From Anaerolineae bacterium (lineage in GTDB: Bacteria; Chloroflexota; Anaerolineae; 4572-78; JBHHXL01): DNA of 41,464 nucleotides. Shown in pieces: positions 6,823 through 38,650 of the stretch. Every line of letters begins with the position of its first letter. The first letter of the stretch is position 1. The notes beneath the pieces were generated by a model, which was not told the DNA's origin, did not search any database, and was given only the letters and a program-made list of their open reading frames with translations. The position numbers were made by a program, and so were the translations under genes. The stretch spans positions 1-41,464 of the forward strand of contig JBHHXL010000003.1 of the NCBI GenBank assembly GCA_046757065.1, given 5' to 3'.

Positions 6823-8928
6823 GTGGACTTTAATCAAGATGACCTCCCCGATTGGTTGCGTAACGCCGAGGGTGGAGATGCTGACTCCGACGATAGTGAT
6901 CTTCCAGATTGGCTAAAAAACCTGGATGAAAGCGGCAGCCTTGAGGACGACTCCGGAGCCGCCGATCTACCGGATTGGCTGCAAGATGAGTCCGTGGATG
7001 CATCAGTGGATGAGCCTGTCGATGATGATCTGCCCCCGGCCCCCGCCGTCGAAGCCTCCGCTGAGGATGAGGAGGATGAAGACGGGCGAGCTTTGTGGGA
7101 GCAAATACTGGCCGAGGAGGGCCTGGACCTGACAGATGTGGCCGAAGAACGGCCTGAAGGCTCCGGGGATATGACCGCCTCCGAGTGGTTAATTGCAACC
7201 TCCAGCGAGTCTCCTGCGACGCCACGTTCAACGAAAGCCGGGCAACCTGAACCTGCGCCCCCGGCAGCGGTTCCCTCCGAGACCGAGCCCCCACCCGAAC
7301 CGGCCACCGTTGCCGAAGATGACGGCATCGTGGACATTGATGGCTTGCCGGAATGGCTGCGCGATGAGGCCGCCCTCGAAACCCAAGAAGCCACCGATAT
7401 ACCGGACTGGCTGAAAGACCTGGACGAGGAAGAACCTAGCGCCGCCCCCGCCGTGGAAGCTGCTCCAGAGGCTCCTGTCGCCTTATCCGAGGATGACGCC
7501 GCGCCCCCTCCAGACAAAACCGTTTCAGAAATGGCCGAGGCAGATGGCATACCCGATTGGCTGCGGGAAGTGGATGCCGAAGCGCCCGCATCGGTCGAAG
7601 CCGCGCCGGAGGCGGTCGCCGCTCAGGAAACGCCCGTCACCGAAGATGACGGCATCGTGGACGTTGATGGCTTACCGGAATGGCTGCGCGACGAGGCCAC
7701 CTTCGAAGCCGAGGCGGCCGCTGAAGCCCCCGATTGGCTGAAGGAGTTGGACGAAGAAGAAACCGCCCCGCCCCCGCCGGCAGCCCCCGCCCCGGCCCCG
7801 CCTCCGGCAGAGGTCGCGGCAGAGGCAGAAGACGTACCGGAATGGCTGAAAGAGGTTCAGACTGAAACGCTTGCCGACGAACAGGAAACCGCCCCGGTCG
7901 AAGAGGAAAGTCTACCTCATTGGCTGGCAACCGAAGAGCCTGATGCTACCGAAGCGGAGCACGCCCCAAGCTGGCTACGCGAAATACAGGGGGGCGAGAC
8001 CACGGTTGAAGATGTTGATGCAGCCGATTTAGCCGACATCCCTGATTGGCTGCAAGGCGCAGTCGAGGAAGAACTGGCCCCAGCGCAACCGGCTCAAGCC
8101 ACCAGCGAAGCCGAACCCCCCGAAAAACCGGCCTGGATGGACGGAGTTTTGGCCGAGGAGGAGCCCTTGCCGCAAGATATGCCCGCCGAAGACATGGCCG
8201 CCCTAAGCGAGACCGCCCCCGAAGTAGAGGGGCCCGATGACAGCGGCCTGCCCGACTGGTTGTTGCGCCTGCGCGAAGAACCCGAAGCCGAAGAAGCGCC
8301 AGCGCCACCAGCGCCGGAACCCGTCGCCGAAGCCGAGGTAGAGGAAGCTGAGGTGGTGGAGGAAGAACCTCCGGACTGGTTGCGCCGCTTAAGAGAAAGC
8401 GAAGGGCTGGAGCCGGAAGCCGAGGTGGCCGCACCCGAGCCAGCCCCCGAAGCAGAGGGGCCCGATTGGCTGGACGATCTGGTCCGCGAAGAGGAGGCCC
8501 TCACCCACTTGCCGGTTTCCGAAAAAGCGCCAGAACCAGCCCCGCCCCCGGCAATTGAACCTGCATCTAAACCCGTCTCCGTGGGTGAGGTAGTAGAGCA
8601 ACCCGCGGCCCAGGCGGCCCGAGAATTGTCGGCAGCAATCGATGCAACGGCCAAAAAAGATACGCCGGAAGCCCGCCTGGCCATAGCCCGCGCCGAATTC
8701 AAAGCAGACGACCTCAAAGAGGCGCTTGGGAAGTACAAATCTTTGATCAACTCCTCGGCGCTCCTGGATGAAGTTATCGCAGATTTACAGGCCGGGGTGG
8801 ATGCCCAGCCCGATAATTTCCTGATCCAGCAAACGCTGGGCGACGCCTTAATGAAAGATGGTCGCTTGCAAGAAGCTTTGGATGCCTACCGGGCGGCGCT
8901 GGCCAAGCTTTCCGCCTCGCCGGCCTGA
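6823..8928 (+). CDS. Acidic, Pro/Ala/Glu-rich low-complexity protein with 16 PxW[LM] motifs and a C-terminal TPR-like region
   Basis: 701-aa ORF with GTG start after AAGGAAGG. Repeated [LIV]P[DE]WL. C-terminus LGDALMKDGRLQEALDAYRAAL is TPR-like. Confidence 0.85.
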   Translation: MDFNQDDLPDWLRNAEGGDADSDDSDLPDWLKNLDESGSLEDDSGAADLPDWLQDESVDASVDEPVDDDLPPAPAVEASAEDEEDEDGRALWEQILAEEGLDLTDVAEERPEGSGDMTASEWLIATSSESPATPRSTKAGQPEPAPPAAVPSETEPPPEPATVAEDDGIVDIDGLPEWLRDEAALETQEATDIPDWLKDLDEEEPSAAPAVEAAPEAPVALSEDDAAPPPDKTVSEMAEADGIPDWLREVDAEAPASVEAAPEAVAAQETPVTEDDGIVDVDGLPEWLRDEATFEAEAAAEAPDWLKELDEEETAPPPPAAPAPAPPPAEVAAEAEDVPEWLKEVQTETLADEQETAPVEEESLPHWLATEEPDATEAEHAPSWLREIQGGETTVEDVDAADLADIPDWLQGAVEEELAPAQPAQATSEAEPPEKPAWMDGVLAEEEPLPQDMPAEDMAALSETAPEVEGPDDSGLPDWLLRLREEPEAEEAPAPPAPEPVAEAEVEEAEVVEEEPPDWLRRLRESEGLEPEAEVAAPEPAPEAEGPDWLDDLVREEEALTHLPVSEKAPEPAPPPAIEPASKPVSVGEVVEQPAAQAARELSAAIDATAKKDTPEARLAIARAEFKADDLKEALGKYKSLINSSALLDEVIADLQAGVDAQPDNFLIQQTLGDALMKDGRLQEALDAYRAALAKLSASPA

Positions 8929-8952: not shown

Positions 8953-9402
8953 GTGGAACGAACTCTGGTTCTCATCAAACCCGACGCGGTACAACGCCAG
9001 TTGATCGGCCCCATCATCGAACGCCTGGAACAGCGGGGGTTGAAGATTGCCGGCTTAAAACTTGTGCAGGTTTCCCAGGAACTCGCCAAAGAACACTACG
9101 CCGTTCACGAAGGAAAACCGTTCTTCGATGGCCTGATTGAATACATCACCTCGGGTCCAGTGGTAGCGATGGTCGTCGAGGGGCCCAGGGCCATCCAGGC
9201 CACGCGCAACACGATGGGCGCAACCAACCCGGTTGAGGCCTCGCCCGGCACCATCCGCGCCGATTACGCCCTCGAAATCGGGCGCAACCTGGTGCACGGC
9301 TCCGACGGCCCTGAAACGGCCGCTGCCGAAATCGCGCTCTGGTTCGACAAAGGGGAGTTAATCAGCTACGAGCGCACCGTTGACCCCTGGATATTGGAGT
9401 GA
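8953..9402 (+). CDS. ndk: Nucleoside diphosphate kinase
   Basis: [24 protein letters not shown] and NLVHGSD (catalytic His). Confidence 0.98.
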
Positions 9403-9427
9403 AGTTGTTGGTGGGTTAATTGGATGG

Positions 9428-9772
9428 CTAGAGCATCCTGACCACGACCGGCGCTTCGCGCCACAGGTCTTCAAGGTCGTAGTAACGTCGCACTTCCGGC
9501 GAAAAAACGTGAAGGATGACATCACTGTAATCTAACAGGACCCAGCCGGCGTCGGCAGAGCCCTCGGCGTGCAATGGATTAACCCGGCGCTCACGCAAGC
9601 TCTCCCGAACCCCCTCGACGATGGCCCTGATCTGGCGTGCGGTACTTCCCTCGCAAATGACAAAATAATCGGCCAGCAGCGTTACCGGGCGCACATCCAG
9701 CATCAAGATATTTGCCGCTTTCTTGTCGGCTGCTGCATCTACAATTTCGTGAGCCAGTGTATTTGATTCCAG
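9428..9772 (-). CDS. rsfS: Ribosome silencing factor RsfS (Iojap)
   Basis: DKKAANILMLDV, ADYFVIC, WVLLDYSDVILHVF, RRYYDLEDLW. The frame extends 22 codons above the ORF-track start to a CTG at 9772 preceded by GAGG. Confidence 0.93.
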   Translation of the reverse strand: MESNTLAHEIVDAAADKKAANILMLDVRPVTLLADYFVICEGSTARQIRAIVEGVRESLRERRVNPLHAEGSADAGWVLLDYSDVILHVFSPEVRRYYDLEDLWREAPVVVRML

Positions 9773-10040: not shown

Positions 10041-10514
10041 TTAACCCTTTCCCGGCAGGAGTTGGGCAAGCCGGGCCTGCATCCCGGCCCAATGCGTGCC
10101 CGGCCAGTAGATGCGACCGCAAGCGGCGCACTCCCGGAAGTGGGTTTGCGTTTTCAAAACATAGGGCGGCACACGTCCTTCCACTTCAGACGGCGCGGCC
10201 TGGATCAACGACCCGTTACAAACCGCGCAACGCCGCCGGTCCGGGTCTGGCCGGAGGCGACAGGCGGCGATGACCTGCCGGAGCTGCTCGTCCAGAACCT
10301 GGCTCTCGATGAGCAGGGTTTTCACCCCCCGGCGCGCCGCCAGCGGCCTATCGCGGGTGAGCAAAATCCGCCCTTCGGCGCGGGCCTGGCGAACCAGTTC
10401 GGCATCGGACGCCTGGGGGTTATAGAGGGTGTCATAGCCCAAGAGCCTCAGCCAGCGGGCCAATGATCCCAACATCGCGTCGGCAATGAACGTTAGCGCA
10501 ATCTGCCCGGTCAC
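10041..10514 (-). CDS. Mut7-C RNase domain protein (PIN-like fold plus zinc ribbon)
   Basis: FIADAMLGSLARWLRLLGYDT, RILLTRD, RCAVCNG, CAACGRIYWPGTH. Confidence 0.92.
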   Translation of the reverse strand: MTGQIALTFIADAMLGSLARWLRLLGYDTLYNPQASDAELVRQARAEGRILLTRDRPLAARRGVKTLLIESQVLDEQLRQVIAACRLRPDPDRRRCAVCNGSLIQAAPSEVEGRVPPYVLKTQTHFRECAACGRIYWPGTHWAGMQARLAQLLPGKG

Positions 10515-10530
10515 GCATCCCTGCCCGGTT

Positions 10531-10583
10531 TTGAATAATCAGGTTCCTGATGGTAAGATGAGACCTCAACCGATTTGAGGTCT
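10531..10583 (+). promoter_or_regulatory. Promoter and operator-like palindrome for the Amt-like gene
   Basis: TTGAAT, 17-nt spacer, TAAGAT (10554-10559), followed directly by AGACCTCAA-N5-TTGAGGTCT (10561-10583). Confidence 0.5.
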
Positions 10584-10603
10584 TAGCTTTGGGAGGCAAT
10601 GTA

Positions 10604-12142
10604 GTGCGACAGCGATGGATCGCCAGCCTGTTGTTGGCGATATGGTTTGTATCAATGAGCAGTCTACCGGCCCTGGCCCAGGGAGGAGACGGGGCCGGCG
10701 ATCACGTCTCGGTGATGGGCCCCGCCGGCGGCCTGGTGCTGTTGCTGCCGTTAGGGCTCCTCTTGCTGGGCAGCAGCGCCCTTCCGAAAGAGGAAACGGC
10801 AGAGGCGCTGGCAACGGCCCTGGTCGGCTGGGGATTGGCCGCGCTGGTCTACACGGCTGTTGGCTTTGCCTTTCAATTCGGCGGCGTGGCCGTTTACCCG
10901 CATCTACCGGACGGCTCCGGCCTGGCGAACCTGGGCCAGGGGTGGTCGCCCTACGACCAGACTGTGCCTTTCGAGGTTTCTCGATTGTGGCGCGTGATCG
11001 GCCTGACCGGCTACTTCCTCAACGATCCGGCCAACACGCCCGACGCGCTCTCCCTCTTCGCCAGCCATCTGGCCATTTTGGGGGTGATGGTCATCCCCTC
11101 CGCGCTGGTCTTGCACAACCGCGCCCGGCGCCCGGCCCTGGCGCTTTCAAGCCTGCTGCTGGGCGGCCTCGTCTATCCCCTGCTGGGCAACTGGATATGG
11201 GGCGGGGGCTGGCTGCAAAACCTGGGGGCCAGCCTGGGCTACGGGCACGGCGCAATCGACTTTGGCGGCGCGTTTGTCTTTGCCGGGGCGGGAGTCGCCG
11301 CCCTCTCGGCGCTGCTCGTCTTTCGACCGGCCCACGCGCCTCCGGCAACGGCGAGCGCCTCGCAGTCCGGCGAACAGATTATCCCTATGCCGCCCGCCCA
11401 TTTGCCGTTGCTGGGCCTGTTGGGCGCTGGCCTGAGCCTGGTAGGGATGACGACGCTGGTCGACGCTCCGCACTTATCCCAGGTCTGGAACATCGATGCC
11501 GGCCGCATCCTGGTCAACCTGTGGCTGGCGGGCTTGAGCGGCGGCCTGGCCGCCGCTGTCTATAGCTGGTTTGCCACATCCCGCTTCCATCCATTTATGA
11601 CGCCGCGCGGCATATTCAGCGGGCTGGCGGTGATCAGCGCCGGAGCGCCCTTCGTTCCGGTTTGGGTGGCCGTGGCAACCGGGTTCTTGGCCGGCCTGAC
11701 GCTGCCGCTACTCATATTTCTCTTCGAGCGGGTGTTTCGCCTGGATGACCGACCGGCGGCATTGTCCACGCTGGGCGTGTACGGCCTGCTCGCCCTGCTT
11801 TCCGCCGCCGTCTTTGCCGACGGCACAGCCGGCCTCGGTTGGAACGCGACCCTGGCCGAAACCCGCTTGGGCGTGGCCAACCAGGGTGTATCGGGCCTGC
11901 TGGTGGCGGAAGGGTTCGCCTCCGACTGGCCCTCCCAACTCATTGCCCAGGGAATCGGCGCGGCGGCAACTTTGATTTGGGTGTTTGGGATGACCTTCAT
12001 CCCCTATCGCGTTTTGGCCGGGATTTTTCGGACCTGGGAGCGAACGCGTCCCGACAGGCCGGCGACCGACTCATTGGAGCTACCGCTTGACTCCAGGGAG
12101 GGTCCTCTTCACGGGCAAACCATCGAGCAGGGCGAAACCTGA
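10604..12142 (+). CDS. Divergent ammonium transporter (Amt/Mep/Rh)-fold membrane protein
   Basis: Signal peptide, YTAVGFAFQFG, VYPLLGNWIWGGGWL, GAIDFGG, GLAVISAG, FRLDD and QLIAQGIG place it in the Amt family, but key residues are altered. GTG at 10604 follows GGAGG. Confidence 0.85.
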   Translation: MRQRWIASLLLAIWFVSMSSLPALAQGGDGAGDHVSVMGPAGGLVLLLPLGLLLLGSSALPKEETAEALATALVGWGLAALVYTAVGFAFQFGGVAVYPHLPDGSGLANLGQGWSPYDQTVPFEVSRLWRVIGLTGYFLNDPANTPDALSLFASHLAILGVMVIPSALVLHNRARRPALALSSLLLGGLVYPLLGNWIWGGGWLQNLGASLGYGHGAIDFGGAFVFAGAGVAALSALLVFRPAHAPPATASASQSGEQIIPMPPAHLPLLGLLGAGLSLVGMTTLVDAPHLSQVWNIDAGRILVNLWLAGLSGGLAAAVYSWFATSRFHPFMTPRGIFSGLAVISAGAPFVPVWVAVATGFLAGLTLPLLIFLFERVFRLDDRPAALSTLGVYGLLALLSAAVFADGTAGLGWNATLAETRLGVANQGVSGLLVAEGFASDWPSQLIAQGIGAAATLIWVFGMTFIPYRVLAGIFRTWERTRPDRPATDSLELPLDSREGPLHGQTIEQGET

Positions 12143-12146
12143 GCCA

Positions 12147-12743
12147 TCACCTCTCCGGGACCGCCACCAGCGGCGCTTGCGCCAATTGGGTATAGACGGG
12201 ACCCCCCGGCTGCAACTGGCTGCGCATCAAGCTGATAGACGAAACGCCAAACTGATCGACCTCGTCGATCTGTAGACGCCTTAAAAGCATACCGGCCCGT
12301 TTCACCTCACGCGAGGCGGCCCGTTTGTGGGCATAGGCCAGCGTGAGATGGGGGGTATATGGGCGCGCCTCGGGGGGAAAGCCCAGCGACAGCAAGACCG
12401 GTCCCAGGGTTTTATGCAGTTTCGTTAAGATACCGAGGCTATCGTTGAAGCCCGTCCATAAAACGCGAGGCCATTTTAGATTGGGAAAGCCGCCAATGCC
12501 CTGGACGCCTAACGTAAACGGGCTGTACTCGTAGGCAACAGCGTGAAGCGCCTCCGCCAGCTCAGGGATTTGCTCCGCCGGCACCTCCCCCAAAAAGACG
12601 AGGGTCAGGTGGAAATTCTCTGGCCGAACCCAACGGAATACCGTTTCGCCGACCTCTCGCCTCAAGTTGTGTTGCAGGGAAATGAGCGCGGTGCGCGTGT
12701 GTTGAGGAAGTTCAATCGCGATAAACGTTCGATACGTGGACAT
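12147..12743 (-). CDS. thpR: RNA 2',3'-cyclic phosphodiesterase (2H family, LigT-like)
   Basis: RTFIAIELP, two HLTL motifs (ENFHLTLVFLG, YTPHLTLA), PRVLW, GPVYT. Confidence 0.93.
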   Translation of the reverse strand: MSTYRTFIAIELPQHTRTALISLQHNLRREVGETVFRWVRPENFHLTLVFLGEVPAEQIPELAEALHAVAYEYSPFTLGVQGIGGFPNLKWPRVLWTGFNDSLGILTKLHKTLGPVLLSLGFPPEARPYTPHLTLAYAHKRAASREVKRAGMLLRRLQIDEVDQFGVSSISLMRSQLQPGGPVYTQLAQAPLVAVPER

Positions 12744-12754
12744 GAGCCATCCCT

Positions 12755-12991
12755 TTAGATCATGAACCGCAGGCGAGCCATAAAATCCCCCACCTCCTTG
12801 AGCTTTCGAGCGCTGGCTTGATCATCCCTGGCGCGATATTCCTCAACGGTCTTGTCCAGTTCGGCGAAGAAAAGGCCATCACAACGGCTGATGTTGTTGC
12901 CGATAATCTTCTTCAATTCATTCTGGTCCTGGGCCTGGCAAATCTGTTTGATCAGCTCGTGGGCCTGTTGATAGGTCATCGAAGGAGACAT
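12755..12991 (-). CDS. Small helical hypothetical protein (78 aa)
   Basis: ATG at 12991 after AGGAG; ends 11 nt before thpR, so probably co-transcribed. The longer ORF-track N-terminus is repeat-derived. Confidence 0.75.
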   Translation of the reverse strand: MSPSMTYQQAHELIKQICQAQDQNELKKIIGNNISRCDGLFFAELDKTVEEYRARDDQASARKLKEVGDFMARLRFMI

Positions 12992-13007
12992 TTGCGCTCT
13001 CCTGACT

Positions 13008-13067
13008 GGGTGCGTCCAAAATATTTGGAAAGCACAGGGGGGACTTGGGGGAACACCCCCCACACCC
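13008..13067. mobile_element. 60-bp GGGTG..CACCC miniature element with an 8-bp target duplication
   Basis: Left end GGGTGCGTCCAAAA resembles that at 9879. TCCTGACT at 13000-13007 and 13068-13075. Confidence 0.8.
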
Positions 13068-13179
13068 TCCTGACTACAGTATTGCGATCTTAACCGTGGA
13101 CAGGATGATAACATGGCCGGGAAGGGAAGTCAACCCATTTTCATTTTCCATTGCCGAACGGTTGTGCTAAAATAAGCGT

Positions 13180-14544
13180 ATGTTGAAAACCCTGCTCGAT
13201 CAAGGCCCTAACCAGACCGTCGCTTTCCTGCCCGATACGGACGTGGCCGTATTGGCGGAGACATTGGTCGCCTTTGCCAACCGCGAAGGCGGCACGATTC
13301 TGGTCGGCGTCGATTCGAAGGGGCGCTTCACCCGCAACGTGATCGCCGAGGATGTGGAAGGCGGGTTGACCGAAGCGCTGATCTTGTGCCGTCCACCGGT
13401 AGCCACCGAATGGCAACAACACGAGGTGCCGGGCGGCGTGGTAGTCGTTTTGCGGGTGGCGCGCAGTCCGGAGTTACACGCCCTGGCCGATGGCCGGGTG
13501 TTGATTCGGACCGGGGCGGAAAACCGCCCGCTCGGGGGCGAGGCCATCCGCCACCTGGCCGCCACCAAATCGAGCGGCGATTTCGAGCGCGAGCCGGTCC
13601 CCGGCACTACCTTGCTGGATTTGGACAAAGACATCCTGGACGAGTACCTTAGCAAGCGCGCCGAGCGAGGCCAACGCTCCCTCAGCGGCCGCCTGGAAGA
13701 CCACCTGGTTGAGATAGGGGCGATGTCGGAGGAGGGCGTGCCGACAACGTCCGGTATGCTCCTGTTTGGGAAACGGCCCCAAACCTTCCTGAGCCAGAGC
13801 GGCGTGATTTTCGTCAAGTTCCTGGGAACCGAGCCCAGGGGCCGCGACGGGTTGGCCGGCTATGGCCGCCGGGTGGAAATCGAGGGGCCTCTGGCCCGCG
13901 TGATCGAGCGAGCCTGGAATTTAATTTGGGAGGAGATGCGGGTCGAGGCCGTCGTCACCGGCCTCAAGCGGGAGGAAGTGCCCGAATACCCCCATTTTGC
14001 CGTACGCGAGGCCGTGATCAACGCCTTGTGCCATCGCGATTATCGACTGGCCGGGCGGCGGGTGGAAATCCGCATGTTCGAAGACCGGCTGGAGGTGATC
14101 AGCCCCGGCGGTTTGCCGGGCTACATCACCATCGATAATATCGTGGAAGAGCATTTCAGCCGGAATCCGCGCCTGGTGGCCGGCCTTTTCCAATGGGGCT
14201 ACATTGAAGAGCTGGGGCTGGGCATCGACCGTATGATCGAGGAGATGCTGCAACAGGGCCATCCCCCCCCGGAGTTCAAAGCCACGCCCTACTCCTTCAC
14301 CGTCCGGCTGTACAACATCCTGGAACGCGCCCCGGCCGTCCGCTGGGACACCAACCTGGGCGAGCGGCAGATGCGAGCGATGGCCTTTATCAAGCAGCAC
14401 GGCCGCATCACCAGCCGCGACTATCGCGCCCTCTGCCCCGACGTCAGCCCCGAAACCCTCCGTCTGGATATGGTTGATCTTGTGGACAAGGGCCTGCTCC
14501 TCAAGATTGGAGACAAAAAGGGAACCTATTACATCCTGAAGTAA
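13180..14544 (+). CDS. AlbA_2 (Schlafen-like) + RecG-C/HATPase_c_4-like + winged HTH protein
   Basis: VAFANREGGTILVGV, AVREAVINALCHRDY, RLEVISPGGLP, SRNPRL, IEELGLG, and C-terminal HGRITSRDY..LVDKGLL. Confidence 0.88.
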   Translation: MLKTLLDQGPNQTVAFLPDTDVAVLAETLVAFANREGGTILVGVDSKGRFTRNVIAEDVEGGLTEALILCRPPVATEWQQHEVPGGVVVVLRVARSPELHALADGRVLIRTGAENRPLGGEAIRHLAATKSSGDFEREPVPGTTLLDLDKDILDEYLSKRAERGQRSLSGRLEDHLVEIGAMSEEGVPTTSGMLLFGKRPQTFLSQSGVIFVKFLGTEPRGRDGLAGYGRRVEIEGPLARVIERAWNLIWEEMRVEAVVTGLKREEVPEYPHFAVREAVINALCHRDYRLAGRRVEIRMFEDRLEVISPGGLPGYITIDNIVEEHFSRNPRLVAGLFQWGYIEELGLGIDRMIEEMLQQGHPPPEFKATPYSFTVRLYNILERAPAVRWDTNLGERQMRAMAFIKQHGRITSRDYRALCPDVSPETLRLDMVDLVDKGLLLKIGDKKGTYYILK

Positions 14545-33207: not shown

Positions 33208-36200
33208 TCAAGAAGAGTTCGCCGCGCCGGAGGGCAGATTGGCGCAGGTGCGCTCGTAGGGGATGTCGGGGCCGATGAATTCGTTCCATTCGTCCTGGGT
33301 CAGATTGCGCCACACCTGCTCGCAGACCCAATCGGCCAGGGTTTCCGTCCGCGCCCTCCAAATGAACGTTTTTCTATCTTCCCCCCCGGAGGCCAGCATT
33401 TGACCATCCGGGCTGAAGGCCAGGGCTTTGGCCGTACCGTTATGACCGGACAGCGAGGCGATGGGGGCCTCAGGCCGGTGCAAGTCCCACAGGCGCACGG
33501 TCCCATCGGCGCTGGCCGCGGCCAGGGTTTGGCCGTCCGGACTGAAGGCCACAGCCATCGCCCAATCCTCGTGGCCGGGCAAAATCCGGGAGCCGGCGTC
33601 GGGCTGGCCCAGGTCCCACAGGCGCACGGTCTCGTCGGCGCCGCCCGAGGCCAGCGTCCGGCCGTCCGGGCTGAAAGCGACGGACATCACCCATTGCTCG
33701 TGACCGCGCAAAACGGCCAGCGGCGGCGATTCGGGCCGGCCCAGGTCCCATAGGCGGATCGTCCTGTCGGCGCTCCCCGAGGCCAGCGTTTGACCGTCCG
33801 GACTGATAGCTACCGACCAGACCCGGCCCTCGTGACCCCGGAGAATGGCCGGCCCGGCCTCCGGCCGGCCTCGATCCCAGACGGCCACGGTCCGGTCCCA
33901 ACTGCCGGTAGCCAGAGTCCGGCCATCGGGGCTGAAGGCCAGGGCATAAACCCGGTCTTCGTGGCCAGGCAGCAACACGGGGGCGGCCTCCGGCCGGCCT
34001 GGCTGCCACAAATAGACCTCCCCCTTCAGCCCGCCCAGGGCCAGCGTTTCTCCATCCGGGCTGAAGGCAACGGACAGGGCCGGCTCCCCTGCCGGCAACG
34101 GAACCGGCAGCGCCTGGAAATCATCGAGAGGCCACAACTGCGCGCCCCCAAAACCGCTGGCAGAAGCCAGGGTGCGGCCATCGGGGCTGAAGGCGACCGA
34201 GATGACCCGTTCATTCTCGTTTAAGACGATGGGAACGGCACGAGGTTGGCCCAGGTCCCACAACCGCACCGTGTTATCCAGGCTGCCCGAGGCCAGCGTC
34301 CGGCCATCGGGGCTGAAAGCCACGGCCCGCACGGCGGTCCCGTGGCCGCGCAAAACGGCCGGCGCAGCGCCGGGTTGGTCGAGCCGCCACAGCCGCGCCG
34401 TGCGGTCGTCACTGGCCGAGGCCAGAGTCCGGCCGTCCGGGCTGAAGGTCACCTGCCGGACCTCGCCGTCGTGGCCGTCGAGGATGGCCGGGGCAGGGTC
34501 GGGCTGGCCCAGGTCCCACAGGCGTATGCTCCGGTCAATACTGCCGGAGGCCAGGGTTTGACCGTCCGGGCTGAAGGCCACGGACCTGATTCCCTGCTCG
34601 TGGCCGGGCAGGAGGGCCGGTTCCGCTTCAGGTTGGCCCAGGTCCCACAGCCACAACGTGCCATCGCCGCTGGCGGCGGCCAACGTTTGACCATCCGGGC
34701 TGAAGGCCACGGACAAAATATCCAGGTCCCCTTGACGGCCTCTCAGACTGAGCGGCGGCGCGCCGGGCTGTGTTAAATCCCACAACCGGATCAGGCCATC
34801 AGCGCTGCCGGAGGCCAGGGTCGCTCCATCAGGGCTGAAGGCCACGGAAAAGACGGTCAGCTCGCGCTCACGGAGGATCATCGGAGCGGCCTCAAGCCGG
34901 TTCAGGTCCCAGAGGCGGACCGCGCCATCGACGCCGCCGGAGGCCAGGGTCCGGCCATCGGGGCTGAAGGCCAGGGCCAGGACTTCGCCTTCGTGGCCGG
35001 CTAAGGCCAGCGGCGCAGCGCCGGGCTGGCTCAGGTCCCACAACAACACGCTTCCGTCGACGCCGGCCGAGGCCAGGGTCTGGCCATCGGGGCTGAAGGC
35101 GACGGCATTGACCACGCTTTGATGACCCTGCAGGACGACGCTGAAGTAAGGAACGCTCAGCACGGCCCGCAGCGCACCGTCGATCTCGCTCAGGCCCCGG
35201 TCCGGTTGCCTTTGGCTAAAGAAGTAAGCCTGGCGCGCCAGGAGCGCCCCGCGCTCGTCCTGCTTGCCCCGTTCCTGCTGGCGCGGCGCCTGGGCTGCCA
35301 GCGCCTGCGTGATGGAAACCAGACGCAATCGCTCGGAGCGGCGAAACTGAAGCTGGGCCACGACGGCCGCCGCCACCGCCAGCAAAAAGACGACCGCCAG
35401 CCCCAATGCCAATCGACGCAAGCGCCGGGCAGCCCTGGCCTGCTCCTCGGCCCGCCGTTGCTGCTCGGCGGCCAGGGCCCGCGCCTGGGCCAGCTCCCGC
35501 TGCCGGGCCGCCTCTTTCTCCCGCGCCGTAGCCTCGACCGCGGCCCGGCTGGCTTCCACCAAATCGGACAGGGCCTGGTCGTAACCCAGATCGGCCGCGT
35601 CGGGGCTGGCCAGCCAGCGCCCGGCTTCGCGCAGCTCCACCTCATCCAGCAAACCGCCGGTTTCCCGCCCCAGGCGGATCCACTCGGCGGTCTTGGCCTC
35701 CAGCCGCCGCCGGACCTGCTCCGCCTCGCGCCGTTCAACCAACCAGACTTGCAGGGTCGGCCAACCGGCGATCAGGGCTTCGTGGGCGATGTCTACCTGC
35801 CTATCCGCGCCCTCCTCCGCCCCGCTGAGGGTCAGCAGACGGCTCTCGGTCAAATGGCGCAGCGTTCGATCGAACAGATCGGCATCATCGCCGGCAGAGC
35901 GCAGGGCGGCGACCGGCTGCTGGCGGCGGGTGTCGGCCCGCCCTTCGCCAAACTGGATCAGACGCAAAAAGATGCGGCGAGCCATCGCCTGTTGGACCGG
36001 CGACAGGTCGGCCAAAGCAGCATCGGCCCGCCGCGTCATAGCGACCTGCAAGCCGGTTCGCTTCTCGTCGCCCAGAGCCAGGTAGGCGGTGAACGACATA
36101 ACCAGGGCTTCGTAGGCGCTGAGGGGCAGGAACCGGCGCAGCAGTCGCTCCCACAGGAGCACCAGGGTCTCCTGAACGAGGGGCAGAACGCCCGGCTCGC

Positions 36201-37242
36201 CAGCGGCATCCGCCACCAGACGTTCGACCAGGGCTGCCTCCACATACACCTCGACGTCCTCAGCCGGGCGCAGGATCGCCTGGCGCAATCCATCCTCTTC
36301 GAGAGGCACCACTTCCAGCCGGTGGCCCTGAATCTCAGCCCAAAGGGGCGTCGCCATCAAATCGGAATAGAAATCGGCCCGGACGGTCAGGACCACGTAG
36401 CAATCGGGGGCCTGGGCCAGATGCAGCAAAGCCTGCTGGAAGGGCACGGTGTCCCCTCGACTAAGGGTAAAGACCTCCTCAAACTGGTCCACGACCAGCA
36501 ACAGGCGTTGATCCCGCGGGCGTTGCCCAGGCAGAGCCGCCGTCAGAGCCGCCATTGGCCGCTCGCCGGGCCGCAGCGCGCGGACCAGCCACCCGCCGGA
36601 GCCGAACAGCCCGCTTCGGCGCAGCGCCGGAACCAGCCCGGCGAAGACCAGCGAGGACTTGCCGCTGCCCGATGGGCCGATCACGGCCAGAAACGGGTGC
36701 AGGCGCAACCGCTCCAAAAGCTCCTGCACCTCCCGATCGCGCCCGTAGAATCGAGCGCTGTCTGCTTCGTCAAACGGGACCATACCGGGGTAGGGGCAGG
36801 CCGGCTTCGGGGCCGGGCCGGGCAGCGGAACCTGCAAGGCCACAGACAGCCGTTCCACGACCTGGGGCCAATCAGCCGGGTCAATCGCGTTGAGGGAGGT
36901 GAGCATCGCCAACCGGGGCGGCAGCCGGACCGGTTTGAGGACCAGGGGGATGACGGGCCAGATGGCCGATTCCAGACCGTACGTCTGGGCCAGCAAATCC
37001 GTGAACTGGTTGGAACCATCGGCCAGGTAGGCCGGGGAGAGGACAAGCAAGATGTGCCGGCTCTCGCGCACGGCTCGCTCGAACTCCAGCAGGCGGGGCA
37101 CGCCCAGGGCAAAGGCCGCCTCCGAATGGCAGCGCAGGCCGGCCCCGGCCAGCGCATCGAGCAGGTAGCCCTCGACCCAGGCCCGGTCGGCCTCGGCGTA
37201 AGAAACAAAAAGATCGTAGGTAAAATCGGGCGTGTCGATCAT
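33208..37242 (-). CDS. TIR - STAND NTPase (nSTAND1-like) - TM - 14x WD40 protein
   Basis: YDLFVSY..ILLVLSPAY..IPL (TIR), [45 protein letters not shown], one hydrophobic helix, 14 GH..FSPDG..W repeats. ATG at 37242 after AGAGG. Confidence 0.93.
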   Translation of the reverse strand: MIDTPDFTYDLFVSYAEADRAWVEGYLLDALAGAGLRCHSEAAFALGVPRLLEFERAVRESRHILLVLSPAYLADGSNQFTDLLAQTYGLESAIWPVIPLVLKPVRLPPRLAMLTSLNAIDPADWPQVVERLSVALQVPLPGPAPKPACPYPGMVPFDEADSARFYGRDREVQELLERLRLHPFLAVIGPSGSGKSSLVFAGLVPALRRSGLFGSGGWLVRALRPGERPMAALTAALPGQRPRDQRLLLVVDQFEEVFTLSRGDTVPFQQALLHLAQAPDCYVVLTVRADFYSDLMATPLWAEIQGHRLEVVPLEEDGLRQAILRPAEDVEVYVEAALVERLVADAAGEPGVLPLVQETLVLLWERLLRRFLPLSAYEALVMSFTAYLALGDEKRTGLQVAMTRRADAALADLSPVQQAMARRIFLRLIQFGEGRADTRRQQPVAALRSAGDDADLFDRTLRHLTESRLLTLSGAEEGADRQVDIAHEALIAGWPTLQVWLVERREAEQVRRRLEAKTAEWIRLGRETGGLLDEVELREAGRWLASPDAADLGYDQALSDLVEASRAAVEATAREKEAARQRELAQARALAAEQQRRAEEQARAARRLRRLALGLAVVFLLAVAAAVVAQLQFRRSERLRLVSITQALAAQAPRQQERGKQDERGALLARQAYFFSQRQPDRGLSEIDGALRAVLSVPYFSVVLQGHQSVVNAVAFSPDGQTLASAGVDGSVLLWDLSQPGAAPLALAGHEGEVLALAFSPDGRTLASGGVDGAVRLWDLNRLEAAPMILRERELTVFSVAFSPDGATLASGSADGLIRLWDLTQPGAPPLSLRGRQGDLDILSVAFSPDGQTLAAASGDGTLWLWDLGQPEAEPALLPGHEQGIRSVAFSPDGQTLASGSIDRSIRLWDLGQPDPAPAILDGHDGEVRQVTFSPDGRTLASASDDRTARLWRLDQPGAAPAVLRGHGTAVRAVAFSPDGRTLASGSLDNTVRLWDLGQPRAVPIVLNENERVISVAFSPDGRTLASASGFGGAQLWPLDDFQALPVPLPAGEPALSVAFSPDGETLALGGLKGEVYLWQPGRPEAAPVLLPGHEDRVYALAFSPDGRTLATGSWDRTVAVWDRGRPEAGPAILRGHEGRVWSVAISPDGQTLASGSADRTIRLWDLGRPESPPLAVLRGHEQWVMSVAFSPDGRTLASGGADETVRLWDLGQPDAGSRILPGHEDWAMAVAFSPDGQTLAAASADGTVRLWDLHRPEAPIASLSGHNGTAKALAFSPDGQMLASGGEDRKTFIWRARTETLADWVCEQVWRNLTQDEWNEFIGPDIPYERTCANLPSGAANSS

Positions 37243-37249
37243 GGACCTC

Positions 37250-38650
37250 TTACGGGTTGACGGTCGGCGACGGGAAGACATCAGGCGTCGGCTCCTCCGT
37301 CGGCGTGGGCGTAAACGTCGCCGACGGGGTGATAACCACTGTCGGTGACGGGAAGGGCTCCGGCGTCGGTTCATCGGTGGGCGTCGAGGTCGGCGTATCA
37401 ATCGAAGTCGGCGCACTGGTCGGCGACGGGAAGATCTCCGGCGTCGGCTCCTCCGTCGGCGTGGGGGTGTCGGTCGGTGTCGGGGTGTTGGTCGCCGTGG
37501 ACGTGTTGGTAGGCGTCGAGGTCGGCGTATCGATCGAGGTCGGCGCACTGGTCGGCGTGTCGGTCGGGTTGGGGGTCGGCGTTCCGGTTTCGGTGGGGGT
37601 GTCTGTCACGGTCGGGGTGCTGGTTACCGTGGGCGAATCGGTCGGCGGGCCGCTTGGAGTGTCGGTCGGCGTGGGCACCGAGATAAATGTCGGCGTGGGG
37701 GTGATCGTTGGCAATGGGGTGAACGTCAGCGTAGCTGTTGGAGGCACGAACGTTGCATCTGGCGTGGAAGTAGCGGCGGGGGGCGGCAGCGGGGTCACCG
37801 GCGTCAATGACGCCGTAGCCGTCGGCGAGGCGGGGGGCGGCGGGAGGAGGGGCGCCCGGGCCAGAGTCGGGGTTGGCCTCGGCCCCGAGAAAAAGGCGGA
37901 CAGGGCCAGGTAGCCCCCGCCACAGACCAACAGCAGCAAGACCAGCAGGGCCGGGATACCCACCCACAGCCAGCGGCTCGACCAGGGCGAGGAGGGTTGC
38001 CGGGCCGGAGTCGTCTTCTGCCAGGCCAGGGCCGTTTCGGCGCTGGCGATCATCGTCGCCACGTCCTTATAATCGCCTGCCGCGTCTCGCAGGCGGTGGA
38101 AATATTCCAGGGCCACCCGCCAGCGCCCGGCGTCGAAATGCCGGCGGCCCCGGGCATACAGCCCCGCCCAGTCCTGCTGTTGCCTGGCCCGGTTCAGGCC
38201 GGCGGCGGCTCCAGCGTGGGCCGGGTCCAACTCCAGAACGGCCTGTAACTTCTGGATGGCCGCCGCCCAATCCTCGCCGGCCAGGGCCGCCTGCGCCTGG
38301 TCAAATAACCGTCCGGCCTGGTCGCGGTCCTGCTCCCCGGCCAACCTTCTTTCGAGGGCGACAACGATGCTGTCCACCCCCTTGTAATTGCCATCCAGGG
38401 CTTGCAGGCGGCGAAAGCAGGCCAGGGCTTTGGACAGACGACCGGCTTCAACCTGGGCCTGCCCTTCGGCGTACAGGTCTGCCAGAACCTGCCGATGTCT
38501 GGCCTGGCTCAAACGAGCCGTCGCCTGGGGATGCCCCGGCTTCAGCTTGAGCGCAGCTTGCAGATTCTCGATGGCCGTGGCCCAATCCCCCCTGGCCCAG
38601 GCCGCCTGCGCTTCTTGGACGAGCGAATGGAAATCCGAATCTTCGGCCAT
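37250..38650 (-). CDS. TPR-repeat protein with a single TM helix and a Pro/Thr-rich tail
   Basis: Two ~100-aa helical repeats, TM segment [24 protein letters not shown], then ~210 aa of PT repeats to the stop. Ends 7 nt before the TIR gene. Confidence 0.88.

Follow-up and report, generated by a model that had tools for sequence, protein, structure and literature searches.

An Amt-fold membrane protein of Anaerolineae belongs to a Chloroflexota clade lacking both pore histidines

The window analyzed here is a stretch of 41,464 nucleotides from an Anaerolineae genome (contig JBHHXL010000003.1 of assembly GCA_046757065.1). On its forward strand, between the genes of a Mut7-C RNase-domain protein and a LigT/2H phosphoesterase, lies an open reading frame (ORF) encoding a protein of the ammonium transporter (Amt) family in which neither of the two histidines of the canonical pore is present (Table 1); residues are numbered throughout from the TTG codon at 10589. 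Comparison with related sequences indicates that a Chloroflexota lineage lost both pore histidines once and that the gene has since been kept under purifying selection.

Table 1. Features of the Amt-like gene and its direct neighbours in the window (residues after an equals sign are those of E. coli AmtB)
Feature	Position	Strand	Basis or remark
Mut7-C RNase-domain gene, divergent upstream neighbour	10041..10514	-	Part of the Mut7-C / Amt-like / LigT slot
Hairpin/palindrome, 11-bp stem, 5-nt loop	10559..10585	+	Divergent intergenic region, upstream of the start
Amt-like ORF, 517 amino acids (aa) from TTG	10589..12142	+	Open-reading-frame call
GGGAGG, putative ribosome-binding-site-like hexamer	10591..10596	+	7 nt before GTG 10604; read from sequence
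Probable true start, GTG, giving 512 aa	10604	+	Ribosome-site spacing and ESM Atlas record
Putative signal peptide MRQRWIASLLLAIWFVSMSSLPALA, then QGG	10604..10678	+	Read from sequence; helix 3-24 in the model
Vestibule/gate of transmembrane helix 3: S159 (=F103), H160 (=Q104), I163 (=F107, outer Phe gate lost)	11063..11077	+	Alignment
Conserved periplasmic W204-GGGWL...GHG..D224 segment	11198..11260	+	W148, H156, and D160 equivalents kept
F231-A232, position of pore His168, now non-polar	11279..11284	+	Alignments, tree rows
M287 (=W212), L290 (=F215, inner Phe gate), V291 (=N216), P294 (=S219), H295	11447..11473	+	Alignment
R340 (E. coli S263 position), invariant Arg in both Chloroflexota clades	11606..11608	+	Alignment
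L395, position of pore His318	11771..11773	+	Alignments, tree rows
Cytoplasmic C-terminal tail without ExxGLD	12047..12139	+	Low model confidence, poor conservation
LigT/2H phosphoesterase gene, convergent downstream neighbour	12147..12743	-	Conserved slot

The Amt-like protein matched the Pfam family PF00909 (Ammonium_transp) with 101.4 bits (cut-off 23.2) over residues 47-476. Against the NCBIfam model TIGR00836 ("amt") it scored 104.6 bits, under the cut-off of 343.3, and against the AmtB equivalog NF007947 it scored 14.1 bits, as compared to a cut-off of 657. The AlphaFold2 model, for which 105 relatives were aligned (predicted local distance difference test, pLDDT, 89.9; predicted template modelling score, pTM, 0.87), presented an N-terminal helix followed by eleven long transmembrane (TM) helices; in that alignment, the query departs from none of the nine invariant columns. 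All structures returned by Foldseek from the PDB were Amt/Mep/Rh proteins; the top matches, with a TM-score of about 0.8 normalised on the target, were Ks-Amt5 (6eu6, E = 4.8e-14), Af-Amt1 (2b2f), and Sd-Amt1 (8qj3), and 1u77 was also matched. Rh structures were matched at E values of about 1e-6 or weaker, as compared to about 1e-12 or stronger for Amt structures. Judged from the model, the encoded protein is an Amt-fold membrane protein with 11 predicted TM helices and does not group with the Rh branch. A two-copy complex prediction (residues 43-490) scored 0.01 against a mark of 0.42, a value that speaks neither for nor against assembly.

Residues were mapped with HMMER alignments to PDB chains and with several MAFFT alignments, which agreed with each other; E. 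coli AmtB from the K-12 record and the canonical Amt of the window's own genome served as references. Every motif change listed in the original prediction was reproduced in both types of alignment. The AmtB motif DFAGGTVVH reads DFGGAFVFA in the Amt-like protein, where the H168 equivalent is A232 in the ungapped alignment and F231 in some MAFFT runs, neither of them a histidine; DDPCDVFGVHG reads DDRPAALSTLG, and GWFGFNAGS reads GMTTLVDAP. No histidine was placed at either pore position by the sequence alignments or in the clade described below. The W148 region and D160, also said to have been retained, were recovered as W204 and D224, and H220 corresponds to H156. In the S1 site, W204 and D224 are thus kept, S219 is replaced by P294, and F103 by S159. 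Alignment with 35 canonical rows likewise bore out the loss of the C-terminal GLD motif; the R...ExxGLD...Y pattern of the GlnK docking region, conserved in at least 97% of these rows, is not kept in the query. The GHG that precedes D224 was considered as a clade-specific motif and rejected, because a histidine also occupies that column in 27 of the 35 canonical rows, H156 of E. coli among them. As far as the alignments can tell, nothing remains of the canonical electrogenic route (binding of NH4+ at S1, the Phe gate, proton relay over the twin histidines, and control by the C-terminal region and GlnK) beyond the equivalents of W148, H156, and D160; the replacements in the pore (I163, L290, M287, A232/F231, and L395) are aliphatic or aromatic.

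A word-indexed search identified 141 relatives. Two of these (P0001 and P0002) are 65-68% identical to the query, and the others are at most 48% identical, over alignments spanning most of the query; the relatives with a named organism come from Anaerolineae, Caldilineaceae, or Ca. Amarolinea. An exhaustive search of representative sequences gave 1179 matches with E values no higher than 1e-3, of which 87 reached 1e-30 or better, and the best loci found in metagenome and genome scans were at most 46% identical to the query. A first tree (76 rows, from 80 genome loci) presented a Chloroflexota-only clade of 37 rows (Shimodaira-Hasegawa-like approximate likelihood-ratio test, SH-aLRT, 100; stem 1.09) and grouped the query in a subclade of eight rows (support 98), none of which has a histidine at the two pore positions. 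A second tree of 68 rows, from which both trait columns were removed and duplicates dropped, recovered a 29-row clade (SH-aLRT 100, stem 0.42) in which both histidines are missing in all 29 rows and in which the query forms a trio with P0001 and P0002 (support 100). It branches within a larger Chloroflexota clade of 58 rows (support 100, stem 1.04), where His-His prevails outside the 29 rows, with the exception of a second double loss (L022 and L036) and four single changes. The residue pairs found at the former histidine positions vary across the clade (AF, FY, VL, LL, AL, and AG). A strong orthologue was also found in 26 of 40 genomes of the same order, and none of the 26 has either histidine, H168 being replaced by A, F, V, I, or L and H318 by F, Y, L, or G. 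The conserved His-less clade that the original prediction had proposed to look for by alignment and phylogeny is therefore present, and, because the same losses recur across the whole of it, the loss is a lineage trait and not a matter of chance.

Among 213 homologues with a length of 400 aa or more, a set ranked by similarity to the His-less query whose fractions are not population frequencies, neither histidine was found in 135, both in 44, and one in 34; D160 was present in all 213. Outside the Chloroflexota, other long-branched Amt-like groups with altered gates were observed in Acidobacteriaceae (L068) and Methylacidiphilales (L069, L076, and L078), with changes such as H168Q in L068 and F215 to T, I, or A.

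Ratios of nonsynonymous to synonymous substitution rates (dN/dS), calculated by the Nei-Gojobori method (NG86), were 0.14-0.26 across six His-less pairs; five twin-His pairs from Chloroflexota gave 0.13-0.48, and four canonical pairs gave 0.08-0.15, a fifth being saturated; the ORFs were taken from the earliest start, and translated non-coding sequence at the N-terminus inflates these values slightly. The ratio, for which the original prediction had asked, is thus not near 1. A near-identical strain was found in contigs of a separate study's run, over about 1030 coding bases of the query gene. Downstream of the GTG at 10604 it differs at ten positions, six synonymous and four nonsynonymous (pN/pS, the corresponding ratio of polymorphisms, about 0.24), in a comparison of small counts and a contig depth of 3-4 that may include errors; the nonsynonymous differences are A12V (signal peptide), S258P (long cytoplasmic loop), V324A, and D494G (tail). 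The intact frame, the retention of the invariant columns, and the purifying dN/dS agree with the earlier view that the gene is not decaying, and on these sequence data a pseudogene is very unlikely.

Mean column conservation was calculated for three groups, the 29 His-less rows, the twin-His sister rows, and the canonical rows; as the groups differ in phylogenetic depth, values are only indicative between groups, and the ranking within each group is safe. In this order of groups, conservation was 0.65, 0.69, and 0.52 for the periplasmic loops, 0.60, 0.66, and 0.64 for the TM helices, and 0.39, 0.43, and 0.54 for the cytoplasmic parts; the short cytoplasmic loops c2, c4, and c5 presented values of 0.41-0.53, 0.72-0.77, and 0.75-0.82, respectively. 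Within the query trio, identity extends to 124 of 188 loop positions and 142 of 260 positions in TM helices. Within the His-less clade, constraint is strongest on the periplasmic face, to which it appears to have shifted, and weakest in the inner vestibule, TM5, TM10, and the tail.

The entire Chloroflexota clade has lost F103, S219, N216, H196, the cytoplasmic G183-P-R-x-G, and the C-terminal motif. At the S263 position, all 29 His-less and all 26 sister rows have an arginine (R340 in the query), and 34 of the 35 canonical rows have an asparagine. Other positions were remodelled within the His-less clade. The F107 position is Leu in 26 of 29 rows (I163 in the query) and the F215 position is Thr, Leu, Ile, or Ala, so that no aromatic occlusion would be expected at the gate. 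The W212 position is Trp in 25 of 29 rows, and the query trio lost this Trp. H295, at the position after S219, is a histidine in 27 of 29 His-less rows, as compared to Pro in all 26 sister rows and Thr, Ser, or Ala in canonical ones; at the Q104 position (H160 in the query), the clade has 17 His and 12 Gln. Among the twin-His sister rows, we observed a variant (e.g., L021, L046, and L029) in which Trp occupies each of the two Phe-gate positions (in 22 of 26 rows in either case); the sister rows have a small residue at W212, Asn at S219, and no C-terminal motif.

The gene order Ndk / RsfS / Mut7-C / Amt-like / LigT recurs in distant Chloroflexota loci and serves as an orthology anchor (8953-9706, 10041-10514, and 12147-12743 in the window). 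In 20 of 48 clade loci, a LigT gene is no more than three genes away from the Amt-like gene; these loci include the window and both His-less and twin-His members. A Mut7-C gene is located directly upstream in 12 twin-His loci, as it is in the window. Because twin-His members occupy the same Mut7-C / LigT slot, the histidines were lost in place, in a vertically inherited gene. No glnK lies beside the Amt-like gene, its flanks being the Mut7-C and LigT genes, and no match to PII (PF00543) was found in the 94%-complete genome. The absence of an adjacent glnK, noted earlier, is therefore correct but says little, because clear PII genes (at least 85 bits) are rare in this order; they were identified in only five of 41 genomes (the window's own and 40 relatives), each beside one canonical Amt type.

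The window's genome also encodes a canonical Amt, which lies in two pieces at the ends of two contigs that share sequence there (G000:C678, 759-1694, and G000:C382, 2-535, both on the reverse strand) and has the motifs DFAGSTIVH, GWFGFNPGS, DDPVGAVAVHG, and EELEGLD. This gene is not linked to the His-less gene; neither of its contigs has an adjacent PII gene, and an HxlR-like ORF is found upstream. Among the 26 carrier genomes of the same order, 14 presented no canonical Amt (PF00909), the His-less gene being the only Amt-family gene found in them; seven of these are at least 90% complete (G002, G005, G008, G011, G014, G026, and G032), and absence from incomplete metagenome-assembled genomes (MAGs) is not proof. 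In one genus, the His-less gene overlaps a co-directional radical SAM/SPASM gene or ends no more than about 20 bases from its start (L006, L008, L010, L014, L015, L033, and L093-L096), with a DUF302 gene next in some of these loci; in L033, the Amt-like and radical SAM/SPASM parts form one open frame of 899 aa. The coupling in this genus and the fusion in L033 may reflect a functional partnership or a lost stop codon. An NCBIfam search of the radical SAM partner gave weak sub-threshold matches only and no specific name.

Upstream of the gene, GTG 10604 is the likelier start as compared to TTG 10589, because GGGAGG is located 7 nt ahead of it and the ESM Atlas entry for the protein begins at residue 6; the start given in the original prediction is thus preferred. 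From this codon a signal peptide is predicted (MRQRW..., a hydrophobic core, and a putative ALA/QG cleavage site). The claim that the gene has its own promoter and operator fared less well. A sigma-70 promoter scan of 10300-12400 found no site, the region 10400-10700 gave no Rfam match at E up to 1, and what stands is a single hairpin (minimum free energy -29.6 kcal/mol, z = -2.96) with one exact copy in the genome. The palindrome was rejected as a repeated operator, given this one exact copy and a count of four with up to two mismatches, equal to the four of a reversed-pattern control. The only terminator-like match in the scan of 10300-12400 falls within the part coding for the signal peptide and is below shuffle expectation. 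The hairpin loop is asymmetric, and a contig of run X1, a possible source sample, has it reverse-complemented, its four differences at 10567-10574 being exactly those of an inverted loop. Either the palindrome made the assembly ambiguous or the loop is truly inverted.

Elsewhere in the window, a 701-aa ORF (6823-8928, forward strand) and a 119-aa ORF (12755-13114, reverse strand) had no Pfam or NCBIfam match. Near the Amt-like gene, a 454-aa protein (13180-14544, forward strand) has Schlafen AlbA_2 and HATPase_c_4 domains (a putative transcriptional-regulator / RecG-C-like type). A 1446-aa ORF (33208-37548, reverse strand) lies within the GC-richest part of the window (about 0.68-0.70).

The canonical route, as set out in the review PMC10433425, comprises recruitment of ammonium at S1, deprotonation, relay of the proton over water wires bridged by the twin histidines, and passage of NH3 through a hydrophobic lumen. 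Because the relay residues are absent, this mechanism cannot operate in the query, and the Amt-like protein probably no longer moves ammonium in the usual way. The reading that we tentatively rank first, from the residue patterns, is a passive, non-electrogenic, hydrophobic pore for neutral species such as NH3. Under this reading, the periplasmic vestibule, which is conserved and now rich in histidines (W204, H220, D224, the newly fixed H295, and H160), would still capture a small ligand, most likely NH4+/NH3. NH3 would be the likeliest species, given the retained equivalents of W148, H156, and D160 and the gain of H295. With no proton path, only a neutral species would pass a purely hydrophobic pore, and the protein would be a PII-independent facilitator of NH3 or gas type and not an ammonium transporter. 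The neutral-species pore is ranked first because the gate is a conserved aliphatic one, the vestibule histidine is fixed, no output surface is conserved, and the gene is often the sole representative of the Amt family; it is favoured over a receptor because only the latter would require conservation of an output surface on the cytoplasmic side.

Several observations weigh against this neutral-species pore. In AmtB, 13 of 14 twin-His variants (all but H168E) are reported to show no methylamine transport, and double-His variants no growth on ammonium (PMC3647058); Sd-Amt1 H169F/H323F is described as non-electrogenic, with the behaviour of a permanently OFF receptor (PMC11152129), and RhCE, a natural His-less relative, as having its pore blocked by a hydrophobic constriction (bioRxiv 10.1101/2022.02.10.479914). 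By analogy, these laboratory precedents lean toward a dead pore. In addition, the residues at the former histidine positions vary widely in side-chain volume, and a Phe+Tyr pair would fill the lumen beyond His+His; TM5 and TM10 are less conserved in the His-less than in the canonical rows (0.52 vs. 0.70 and 0.60 vs. 0.78, respectively). The small counts of the strain comparison and the unequal depth of the three conservation groups, given above, count on the same side. It is possible, if doubtful, that H295, beside the old S1 site, marks a sizeable and selectively maintained bacterial Amt-fold family that gave up the twin histidines and the Phe gate and is of one of two kinds, in which either NH4+ is deprotonated in the vestibule and NH3 then passes an aliphatic pore, or the protein is a receptor or carrier for a different periplasmic ligand (e.g., a metal coordinated by the His/Asp/Trp vestibule).

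These same precedents suit a non-conducting protein, its pore plugged by hydrophobic side chains, that would serve as a periplasm-facing binding, receptor, or scaffold module in the manner of RhCE/RhD or of OFF-locked Sd-Amt1; we regard this main rival as rather unlikely. Engineered replacements by F or A abolish conduction (PMC3647058 and PMC11152129), as does the natural blockage of the pore in RhCE. Constraint has been lost from the inner half of the pathway and from the cytoplasmic loops, conservation being highest in the periplasmic loops, and the translational coupling with radical SAM/SPASM in one genus, fused on one contig, hints at a physical partnership. However, that coupling is limited to the one genus, the clade as a whole shares neither a conserved output surface nor a conserved partner (cytoplasmic face, 0.39), and the outer gate is a conserved Leu and not a drifting position, which is unexpected for an unused pore. 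Nor was a fused signalling or transducer domain detected, PF00909 being the only domain in the query and in 11 long divergent relatives. A sensor, as had been suggested in the original prediction, is further weakened by a glycine (G221) in place of Asn three residues before D224 and by the low conservation of the cytoplasmic face; the N1/N2 sensor signature QX6EX15NX2D[F/T]X54-60TX2[S/T] (PMC11152129) was not matched by the query or by any of 98 rows, a set without a positive control. It seems improbable that loss of the histidines made the protein an unselective channel, passing hydrated cations (NH4+/K+) or some other solute in the way of engineered AmtB and Mep2 variants with Ala or acidic residues at the twin-His positions. 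The gate residues of the query are aliphatic and its A232 and L395 pair has less side-chain volume than two histidines, which would suit such a channel. AmtB and Mep2 twin-His variants are indeed described as channel-like and pass K+ (PMC9040831 and PMC10433425), but the loss of selectivity in variants is tied to greater hydration of the pore (PMC9040831), the natural replacements are hydrophobic and neither polar nor acidic, many clade members have Phe+Tyr or Leu+Leu, and no acidic or polar residue was gained at the lumen positions examined. The regulatory or silent subunit of heterotrimers with a canonical Amt encoded elsewhere, another earlier proposal, has a precedent in RhAG2-RhCE (bioRxiv 10.1101/2022.02.10.479914), and the window's genome does encode a canonical Amt with all motifs; nevertheless, the two genes are unlinked there, and the 14 of 26 carrier genomes without a detected canonical Amt, seven of them at least 90% complete, speak against an obligate role of this kind, a reading that is highly improbable. 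Decay of the gene or an annotation artefact hardly merits credence. The query, P0001, and P0002 do share a long stem (0.68) and have lost the W212 kept by the rest of the His-less clade, but the frame is intact over 517 codons, nine of nine invariant columns are kept, the model is confident, the two 65-68% identical relatives come from other sources, and both pN/pS (about 0.24 against the near-identical strain) and clade dN/dS (0.14-0.26) are low.

The twin-His motif is presented as a hallmark of the whole Amt/Mep/Rh superfamily in recent reviews, including PMC10433425, and its role (selectivity, proton relay, or both) has been argued from point mutants with conflicting results (PMC10433425, PMC9040831, and PMC3647058). 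The natural exceptions reported are a fungal H-to-E change at the first position (PMC3647058) and human RhCE/RhD (bioRxiv 10.1101/2022.02.10.479914). No description of a natural prokaryotic Amt clade without the twin histidines was found in those portions of the literature that were searched, recent reviews included; the analysis of 18,924 sequences in PMC11152129 may include such proteins without comment. Members of the His-less clade come from at least three families of one order, have evolved under purifying selection, and are often the sole Amt-family protein of the cell. The clade constitutes a natural experiment with built-in controls, namely the twin-His sister lineage, whose gene occupies the same slot, and the canonical Amt that the same genome encodes. 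If true, deprotonation in the vestibule followed by aliphatic passage of NH3 would give the superfamily a third mode of conduction, one free of the histidines, and either reading of a His-free family with H295 would provide the first natural prokaryotic test of whether the twin histidines are necessary. One source labels such proteins "Amt family ammonium transporter"; the label probably overstates their function and could inflate estimates of ammonium-uptake capacity for Chloroflexota MAGs.

Canonical Amts such as E. coli AmtB and A. fulgidus Amt-1 (PF00909, TIGR00836) share with the query the fold, 11 TM helices, and a signal peptide, as well as W148-GGGWL...H156-G-x-x-D160-x-x-G, many helix-packing glycines, and Q351/Q355 in TM11. 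The query differs from them in having no twin-His, Phe gate, S219, N216, H196, G183-P-R-x-G loop motif, or ExxGLD. The twin-His Chloroflexota sisters (e.g., L017, L021, and L046) belong to the same Chloroflexota-only clade and occupy the same Mut7-C / LigT slot; like the query, they have lost F103, S219, and the C-terminal motif, have the invariant R340, and have long periplasmic TM2-3 and TM10-11 loops. Unlike the query, these sisters have H168 (23 of 26), H318 (26 of 26), and Trp gates; Asn takes the place of S219, the residue aligned with H295 is Pro, and their short cytoplasmic loops stay conserved, which is not the case in the His-less clade.

Ks-Amt5 (6eu6) and Sd-Amt1 (8qj3/8qj4), the best PDB matches of the query in both sequence and structure, are Amt modules that do not serve uptake. 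These sensors are reported to keep S1, the Phe gate, and the twin histidines and to have lateral N1/N2 NH4+ sites and kinase or cyclase fusions; in the query, S1 is kept only in part and none of the others is found. Human erythroid RhCE and RhD resemble the query as natural Amt/Mep/Rh members without the twin histidines, their lumen being interrupted by hydrophobic residues according to the structural report cited above; in contrast to the query, they belong to the Rh branch and RhCE is part of an RhAG2-RhCE heterotrimer that anchors ankyrin, whereas no conducting paralogue was found in 14 of 26 carriers here. The engineered twin-His variants (AmtB with H168/H318 changed to A, F, E, or D; Mep2; and Sd-Amt1 H169F/H323F) have the same two positions replaced, including by Ala and Phe. 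However, these are point mutants in a canonical background, whereas in the natural clade the gate, the S1 site, and the cytoplasmic face have co-evolved and a new vestibule histidine is fixed.

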